A DNA stretch of 7,927 nt. Source: a virus (taxonomy: Monodnaviria > Loebvirae > Hofneiviricota > Faserviricetes > Tubulavirales). The stretch is taken from IMG/VR virus record IMGVR_UViG_2663762849_000002. One strand, 5' to 3'. The notes beneath the pieces are model-generated. The model did not search any database. It was given only the letters and a program-made list of their open reading frames with translations, and was not told where the DNA came from. Positions within the stretch are counted from its first letter, which is position 1, and every line of letters starts with the position of its first letter. Of this stretch, positions 3,551 through 4,182 are shown in pieces. The position numbers and the translations under genes are program-made.

Positions 3551-3853
3551 TCAAACTTTTTTGACCTGTAACAGAATAACCATATCCGTGCGGCTCTTCT
3601 CGTCAGACTTCTGACTCCAGCTCTTTGGCAGAAATGATAATCCTGTGTTGGCCTGCGAATCCTTGTTTTCTGCCAGACCACCCAGCGCAAGTTCAGGCGG
3701 CAACGCATACTGACGCCTGAAAATATCTTCCTGAGCCAGCTGTATCGCTGCATTGAGCGGAATACGGTCAGCAAAAAAGGCCGGAGACGAGGCATGCACA
3801 CACGCCGAAGTCAAAAAAAGAAATGCTGTCAGCAAGTTCAGGCGGCAACGCAT
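3551..3853 (-). CDS. putative small secreted protein or lipoprotein, 100 aa
   Basis: ATG 3853..3851; [45 protein letters not shown]... has an N-terminal signal peptide (AxA-like VHA site, or lipobox-like LTSAC). Weak SD. Its 5' end is the unit duplicated in the 145-bp tandem repeats, so the true start copy is uncertain. Confidence 0.35.
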
Positions 3854-4125
3854 ACTGACGCCTGAAAATATCTTCCTGAGCCAGCTGTATCGCTGCATTG
3901 AGCGGAATACGGTCAACAAAAAAGGCCGGAGACGAGGCATGCACACACGCCGAAGTCAAAAAAAGAAATGCTGTCAGCAAGTTCAGGCGGCAACGCATAC
4001 TGACGCCTGAAAATATCTTCCTGAGCCAGCTGTATCGCTGCATTGAGCGGAATACGGTCAACAAAAAAGGCCGGAGACGAGGCATGCACACACGCCGAAG
4101 TCAAAAAAAGAAATGCTGTCAGTAA
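3691..4125. repeat. three tandem 145-bp direct repeats (3691-3835, 3836-3980, 3981-4125)
   Basis: Seen directly: near-identical units with one substitution (g to a at the ggtcaGcaaaaaagg site) and a c to t change near the end of copy 3. Each unit contains a 7-bp inverted repeat tcaggcg N14 cgcctga. 145 is not a multiple of 3. Confidence 0.9.
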
Positions 4126-4182
4126 GTTAATCAATCTCATCATGTTATACCGTTAAGTGCTGTTTTTCAGTCATGAAGATAT

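Follow-up and report, generated by a model that had tools for sequence, protein, structure and literature searches.

The tandem array described here is very probably the scar of rearrangements within a pseudogenised gene IV, which encodes the pIV/GspD-type secretin of a filamentous, dif-integrating prophage of Escherichia coli. The window, that is, the whole stretch of 7,927 nucleotides (7.9 kb) that was analysed, corresponds to the complete contig CCBY01000495.1 of the E. coli draft assembly GCA_000936105.1. Within it, gene IV is present as nt 0-166, followed by nt 22-166 twice more and then by nt 1073 onward, and a functional secretin cannot be made from this arrangement: gene IV of the window is dead. 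Pseudogenisation by deletion and tandem duplication is an ordinary kind of event that would not surprise a specialist; the locus matters mainly for annotation, and it is also a tidy natural example, in an ssDNA replicon, of a single base, at a hairpin foot, serving as the point of departure of three rearrangement junctions. A recombination scar in a cargo gene had been among the explanations offered by a reading of the sequence alone, and although the scar is essentially right, the gene that bears it is the core morphogenesis gene IV and not cargo.

The window is a filamentous (inovirus-like), dif-integrating phage with an Ff-like gene order, whose minus strand codes for a pIII-like protein with a Phage_Coat_A domain and a Gly/Ser linker, a pVI-like protein of 119 aa, a Zot/pI protein, and a Rep of the P2 GPA type. 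The same phage is present in related E. coli chromosomes (loci L001-L003) with 97-99% DNA identity, and L003 carries it as a tandem pair. A megablast search of deposited phages gave no match to the whole window, and a literature search returned nothing on this E. coli prophage family.

Several other features of the phage were recorded along the way. The Rep (window 815-2914; PF05840, E = 1.8e-48) is an HUH endonuclease of the phiX A / P2 A kind, and not of the Ff pII kind. The 148-bp divergent region between its gene (called start 2815) and a plus-strand ORF of 62 aa (2963-3151) holds 2.2 copies of a 16-bp unit, TGCACAAATGCAATTG, at 2886-2920, which are candidate operators of a small repressor; the equivalent position in sister loci is occupied by another module, with ORFs of 66 and 82 aa. 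Gly/Ser-linker repeats with periods of 39, 30, 18, and 15 bp are found in the pIII-like gene (7013-7186), and the pIII-like protein measures 425, 451, 461, or 489 aa among relatives, indicating that this linker is also length-polymorphic.

The identification of the array as part of gene IV stems from comparison with these relatives, and no observation speaks against it. In L001-L003, the region between zot and the phage end is occupied by a gene of 1209 bp (402 aa) annotated as GspD / type II and III secretion system, and zot lies upstream of gene IV both there and in the window. The intact orthologue (L001:5068-6276) carries a PF00263 secretin domain (E = 9e-25, residues 250-397) and has as its best solved relative the f1 'virion export protein' pIV (7OFH, E = 4e-15); the complete 402-aa secretin shows 44% identity with the nearest deposited inoviruses, but only about 26% with f1 pIV. 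Blastn aligns window positions 3687-4143 with nt 0-166 of the intact gene at 98.7-99.3% identity, and positions 3484-3686 with L001 5001-5203 at 99.0%, the portion 3551-3686 being the last 136 nt of the gene. The start codon and signal peptide that had been attributed to a small secreted-protein gene are thus the 5' end of gene IV, since this position is occupied in relatives by the gene of an intact 402-aa secretin. There, it is the ORF that is intact and the repeats that are absent, the opposite of a situation, contemplated in the sequence-only reading, in which related genomes would carry the repeats with no conserved ORF. The sequence missing from the window amounts to 906 bp (3x302), an in-frame deletion that eliminates residues 57-358, and with them most of the N-terminal domains and almost the whole secretin barrel; nearly all of the sequence that can be aligned to f1 pIV is lost. 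Neither the 100-aa nor the 76-aa product of the rearranged gene has a Pfam match, so that no secretin domain is detectable in them. The features of the locus are listed in Table 1.

Table 1. Features in and around the rearranged gene IV, by decreasing position within the window.
Feature	Position	Strand	Evidence
Gene I (Zot family, 403 aa), directly upstream of gene IV as in Ff phages	4930..6141	-	PF05707, E = 1.1e-9
339-bp tandem array, 2.2 copies, 96% matches, between zot and gene IV	4182..4916	.	Tandem Repeats Finder
Gene IV 5' end (unique): true start codon (4141-4143) and first 7 codons, MMRLINL	4122..4143	-	identical to intact L001 and L003 secretin starts
145-bp unit, 1st in gene orientation, gene nt 22-166, 'V' variant	3977..4121	-	blastn vs intact gene, 99.3%; unit comparison
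76-aa ORF, WP_072048653.1, from true start, frameshifted at first duplication junction	3913..4143	-	translation
145-bp unit, 2nd in gene orientation, same sequence as 1st	3832..3976	-	Tandem Repeats Finder, blastn, unit comparison
100-aa ORF, WP_044696899.1: junction-created ATG, signal peptide (putative), 35 N-terminal residues, last 44 residues of pIV	3551..3853	-	
145-bp unit, last in gene orientation, 'A' variant (3771 G, Val to Ala)	3687..3831	-	unit comparison
Hairpin A, 11-nt arms, 8-nt loop (also at 3837-3866 and 3982-4011); ends 4-5 nt before common breakpoint	3692..3721	.	
Gene IV last 136 bp (codons 359-402 and stop), fused to nt 166	3551..3686	-	blastn; junction inspection
attP-like forked hairpin, built from a pair of inverted dif-like sites immediately after gene IV, including terminator-like stem 3429-3467	3405..3496	-	

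The triplication itself is real and far beyond chance. Tandem Repeats Finder reports, for 3687-4128, a period of 145 bp with 3.0 copies, 99% matches, no indels, and a score of 870; the wider span first assigned to it, 3551-4143, fits the ORFs, whereas the repeat proper is confined to the shorter interval. The first and second units in gene orientation are identical, and the last differs from both by a single base (G at 3771 vs A at 3916 and 4061); this 'A' variant of the last unit recurs in every multi-unit allele of other assemblies. An inverted repeat is indeed present once per unit, as had been noted, but its arms are of 11 nt (91% complementary, separated by an 8-nt loop) and not of 7 bp. 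The duplication junction, at 3976/3977 and again at 3831/3832, joins CCGCCTGAACTTGC to TGACAGC, while the deletion junction, at 3686/3687, joins the same CCGCCTGAACTTGC to GCTGGGTGG, with no microhomology. The presence of both junction types in the window is certain; the exact number of three identical units is only as reliable as the assembler, the contig being a short-read draft and a 145-bp loop of identical units not being reliably counted by assemblers.

As pointed out in the sequence-only reading, 145 is not a multiple of 3 (145 = 3x48+1), and each unit shifts the frame by +1, leaving the upstream copies out of frame. Three minus-strand ATGs result, at 4143 (MMRLINLL..., 76 aa), at 3998 (MRCRLNLL..., 76 aa), and at 3853 (MRCRLNLL..., 100 aa); the ORF that begins at 4143 meets its stop out of frame in the next unit, and translation confirms that only the last copy, from ATG 3853, reads into unique sequence to yield 100 aa. 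This ATG lies inside caG TAT GCg, which codes for Gln-Tyr-Ala in the native frame, and the +1 shift of one unit places it in the native frame of the next; by inspection, no Shine-Dalgarno sequence is evident ahead of it. Each unit does contain a putative signal-peptide segment, which is the secretin's own and not that of a small secreted protein: by inspection, the signal peptide of the gene starts MMR, displays n, h, and c regions, and has a V-x-A cleavage motif between CVHA and SS, while TSAC is a poor lipobox, with T at position -3.

The origin of the junctions may be approached through a property that all three have in common, namely their donor base, C166. When the intact gene is folded as ssDNA, C166 opens the 10-bp stem of a hairpin of about -8 kcal/mol. 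It comes 4 nt after a second, similarly strong hairpin, formed by the inverted repeat found within each unit; of 1195 positions in the gene, just 6 mark the 5' foot of a hairpin whose stability equals or exceeds that of the one at C166. In addition, the unit ends form a direct repeat, AACTTAC (nt 15-21) and AACTTGC (nt 160-166), which match at 6/7 positions and of which the junction keeps the G form. That the endpoint of the deletion should have met that of the duplication by chance in a 1.2-kb gene is improbable, and a breakpoint shared at the foot of a hairpin suggests polymerase pausing followed by template switching, a model that is circumstantial. According to this model, a replicating polymerase would have paused at the hairpin foot, at nt 166, in a replicon that passes through ssDNA; the nascent end ...AACTTGC would have re-paired with AACTTAC, 145 bp upstream, generating the duplication, after which the repeat could gain or lose units through slippage or unequal recombination. 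The deletion would likewise have started at this pause site, with a switch to a target located 906 bp downstream, and the two rearrangements may represent either one compound event or successive ones. To judge from the junctions themselves, the departure of all three from one donor base suggests serial switching. Because the deletion removes the downstream hairpin, the model favours a duplication that occurred before or together with the deletion, with the one-unit allele as a secondary collapse. Proteins that would be expected from duplication without deletion (three constructed sequences) were absent in exact-protein look-ups, a weak result given that gene callers may choose other starts.

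The same junctions could have been cut and joined by a site-specific enzyme, either the GPA-type HUH Rep acting at a pseudo-origin or a topoisomerase, in place of hairpin template switching. The single donor base of the three junctions, the P2 GPA / phiX A type of the Rep, and the lack of microhomology at the deletion junction all fit such an activity, and AACTTG resembles the phiX174 gpA cleavage context. This explanation is nevertheless unlikely: a true origin would need a second CCTGAACTTGC, and none is present (with <=2 mismatches) on the gene-sense strand of the phage, the duplication junction displays the direct repeat expected of slippage, and the hairpin coincidence already accounts for the hotspot.

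Upstream of gene IV, the window holds a second tandem array, of 339-bp units, that also varies among loci, with 1.2, 2.2, or 4.2 copies, L002 having a single 57-bp piece only. In L014 and L019, which belong to an unrelated lineage of filamentous prophages, this array likewise precedes the secretin gene. The first ~57-74 bp of the unit match, at 82-90%, more than 5000 plasmids, mostly small, mobilizable, and ColE1-like, in the ori-adjacent primosome-assembly (n'/PriA) region, and this plasmid-like part may be a minus-strand origin of the phage; a literature search found nothing on a primosome-type minus origin in inoviruses. The remaining 282 bp, which are not plasmid-like, occur in 9 of 5426 complete E. 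coli genomes, in up to 29 places per chromosome. The 339-bp unit folds, as ssDNA, no better than its shuffles, and the 83-aa ORF that RefSeq calls in each unit has no Pfam match.

The rearranged allele of gene IV was searched for with a degenerate pattern, CCGCCTGAACTTGCKSWSRGYRKTYY, which fits both new junctions and not the intact gene, and which recovers all three junctions of the window; it gave 0 matches in species-representative genomes, viral contigs, and metagenome contigs. Neither junction is present in 5,426 complete E. coli genomes (mostly long-read); in the complete genomes that have this stretch (22 of 22), gene IV is single-copy and intact, as it is in the sole match among plasmids, one Citrobacter record. 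The exact 100-aa product, WP_044696899.1, is encoded on 14 draft contigs and the 76-aa product, WP_072048653.1, on 5. Both are catalogued as 'hypothetical protein', whereas they are fragments of a disrupted phage secretin for which a pseudogene annotation is warranted. Ten loci (L004-L013) were compared, and all share the same junctions and the same SNP in the last unit; the unit number is 2 in L008, 4 in L007, and 3 in the eight others, differences that are only suggestive in short-read assemblies. A product of one unit with the deletion only, P0004 (MMRLINLL...ELA joined to LGGLAEN), is found on 3 contigs in ENA. The comparison of repeat copy number across relatives, which had been recommended as a check, thus yields 1, 2, 3, or 4 units in assemblies, all of these being draft counts. 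Intact alleles greatly predominate: 425 contigs carry a single exact sequence of the complete secretin, and the rearranged allele is therefore a rare derived state. Among the carriers, the phage flanks differ by 0.4-2.5% and gene IV is followed by one of two kinds of module; such variation could be due to recombination among co-resident phage copies, to their mosaic assembly, or to long persistence, the last of these being compatible with some selective value.

Another truncation of gene IV is known within this phage family. The P0024 allele, at the dif/ydeP locus (16 contigs; L015-L018, e.g., L015:5580-6161), has a deletion that runs from inside the 339-bp array to secretin nt ~824 and leaves a C-terminal ORF of 130 aa directly after zot. 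This truncation is independent of the allele of the window, and the E. coli inovirus family has consequently undergone two or more independent losses of gene IV; its tandem arrays at the dif site allow trans complementation. An additional sequence from a Logan assembly, P0029, resembles a frameshifted gene IV and may be a sequencing error.

Such tandem arrays are explained by the region that lies just downstream of gene IV, which looks like a CTXphi-style XerCD attP. The motif GTGCGCAYAATG is found at 3405-3416 on the plus strand and at 3485-3496 on the minus strand, with 0 occurrences expected by chance, and the dif-like sites GTGCGCACAATG (plus strand) and GTGCGCATAATG (minus strand) flank a perfect 14-bp stem. 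Folded as gene-sense ssDNA, the region forms an internally bulged hairpin of ~94 nt (-40.2 kcal/mol, z = -11.8). The L001 prophage, beside ydeT, adjoins the host sequence ATTTAACATAATATACATTATGCGCAC, which is presumably the reverse complement of E. coli dif; the loci of other relatives are next to hcaE (L002), yhbO (L014), and yjiM (L019).

A phage copy with this gene IV would be unable to export itself, and pIV would have to be supplied in trans by an intact tandem neighbour, in which case the loss would be tolerated and the allele inherited. In Ff phages, pIV acts in trans, and because of this a copy without pIV could be exported through the channel of an intact neighbour. This scenario fits L005 and L006, in which the remnant and an intact 402-aa gene IV are present in adjoining tandem phage copies. 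A more ambitious proposal would see in these carriers a helper-dependent 'cheater' lineage, with no secretin of its own, using the pIV of its neighbour, endowed with an unstable 145-bp hotspot, and producing a mini-pIV that could contact the secretin of the helper. If this were true, the mini-pIV, consisting of the signal peptide and the C-terminal 44 residues, would be exported; we regard the proposal as distinctly unlikely.

The related possibility that the 100-aa protein, or its deletion-only form, is a functional small exported protein under selection, be it a mini-pIV that modulates or poisons the helper secretin or the mark of a cheater phage, is very unlikely. The putative signal peptide is kept intact along with the in-frame C-terminal tail, the allele recurs across 10 assemblies or more, with differing flanking backgrounds, and an intact copy of gene IV co-occurs with it, all of which speaks for this possibility. 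However, a homology search with the 100-aa protein produced no diverged homologues, every match being either this allele or a fragment of a full-length secretin, and the protein has no Pfam domain. Moreover, its expression from the multi-unit allele relies on an ATG that is out of frame in the native gene and has become usable by accident, no Shine-Dalgarno sequence being evident; one deletion in three would in any case be in frame by chance, and the intact allele of gene IV is far commoner.

The idea that the array or the deletion is an artefact of assembly arises from the nature of the carriers, which are all fragmented short-read drafts with a similar accession series, and from the absence of both junctions from the complete, species-representative, viral-contig, and metagenome-contig sets. 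It is made extremely unlikely by the recurrence of both junctions, unchanged and accompanied by a consistent SNP pattern, across 10 assemblies or more, by the independent calling of the products as RefSeq proteins, and by the origin of the deletion-only form in another source, ENA; two precise junctions together with a linked SNP would not be reproduced by such errors.

The sequence-only reading had also raised the possibility of a copy-number-variable expression switch, comparable to a contingency locus. The 1-4 units seen among assemblies and the +1 frame shift per unit would be appropriate for such a device, but frame analysis largely refutes it: three-frame translation indicates that, whenever two or more units are present, reading from the true ATG stops within the unit that follows and the 100-aa fusion made from the last unit does not change, so that the outcome is constant, i.e., 76-aa dead ends and one 100-aa ORF. 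In addition, the gene to be controlled has already been destroyed by the deletion, with the secretin coding capacity lost, the differences in unit number among short-read drafts may be effects of assembly, and the array is present in no complete genome (mostly long-read). A switch is, consequently, scarcely credible. As to a non-coding structured or regulatory DNA or RNA element (iterons, a packaging signal, or an sRNA), which had been proposed as well and for which one hairpin per unit and the proximity of the attP/intergenic region could be invoked, its probability is negligible, the unit being 99% identical to the coding 5' end of a conserved gene that is single-copy in relatives and folding no better than shuffles (z = +0.22), and Rfam yielding no credible match but two spurious miRNA-model matches, far below threshold, on the attP palindrome.

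The interpretation of the array as a rearrangement scar in gene IV may finally be placed beside systems that are already known. Slipped-misalignment or copy-choice events between short direct repeats near hairpins have been described for M13 and for plasmids. The duplication of the window resembles them in that it is bounded by a short, imperfect direct repeat, its breakpoint coincides with the foot of a stable hairpin, and the replicon has an ssDNA stage; it is the deletion that departs from them, leaving from the same donor base without microhomology. With phase-variable contingency loci, the array shares a unit length that is not a multiple of 3, a position at the 5' end of a reading frame, and a copy number that differs between isolates, but its unit is of 145 bp vs 1-9 bp, and a change in copy number neither restores nor abolishes a product.

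Gene IV and pIV of the Ff phages (f1, fd, M13; 7OFH) find their counterpart here in a gene that directly follows gene I (zot) and whose intact orthologue has a putative N-terminal signal peptide, PF00263, and a C-terminal LLGGL...G.P.L region that aligns to f1 pIV; unlike them, the copy in the window is deprived of residues 57-358, carries two extra 145-bp units, and has no PF00263 match. Filamentous prophages that employ XerCD and dif, including CTXphi/RS1, CUS-1, and YpfPhi in enterobacteria, form tandem arrays with defective or satellite copies. The prophage studied here shares with the CTXphi type two inverted dif-like sites that fold into a forked ssDNA hairpin, the presence of a relative (L001) at the host dif, and tandem copies of which one is defective. 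It differs from that type in encoding, when intact, its own secretin, and in its Rep of the P2 GPA type; in contrast to CTXphi/RS1, its defective copy stems from the decay of a morphogenesis gene, and is not a distinct satellite.
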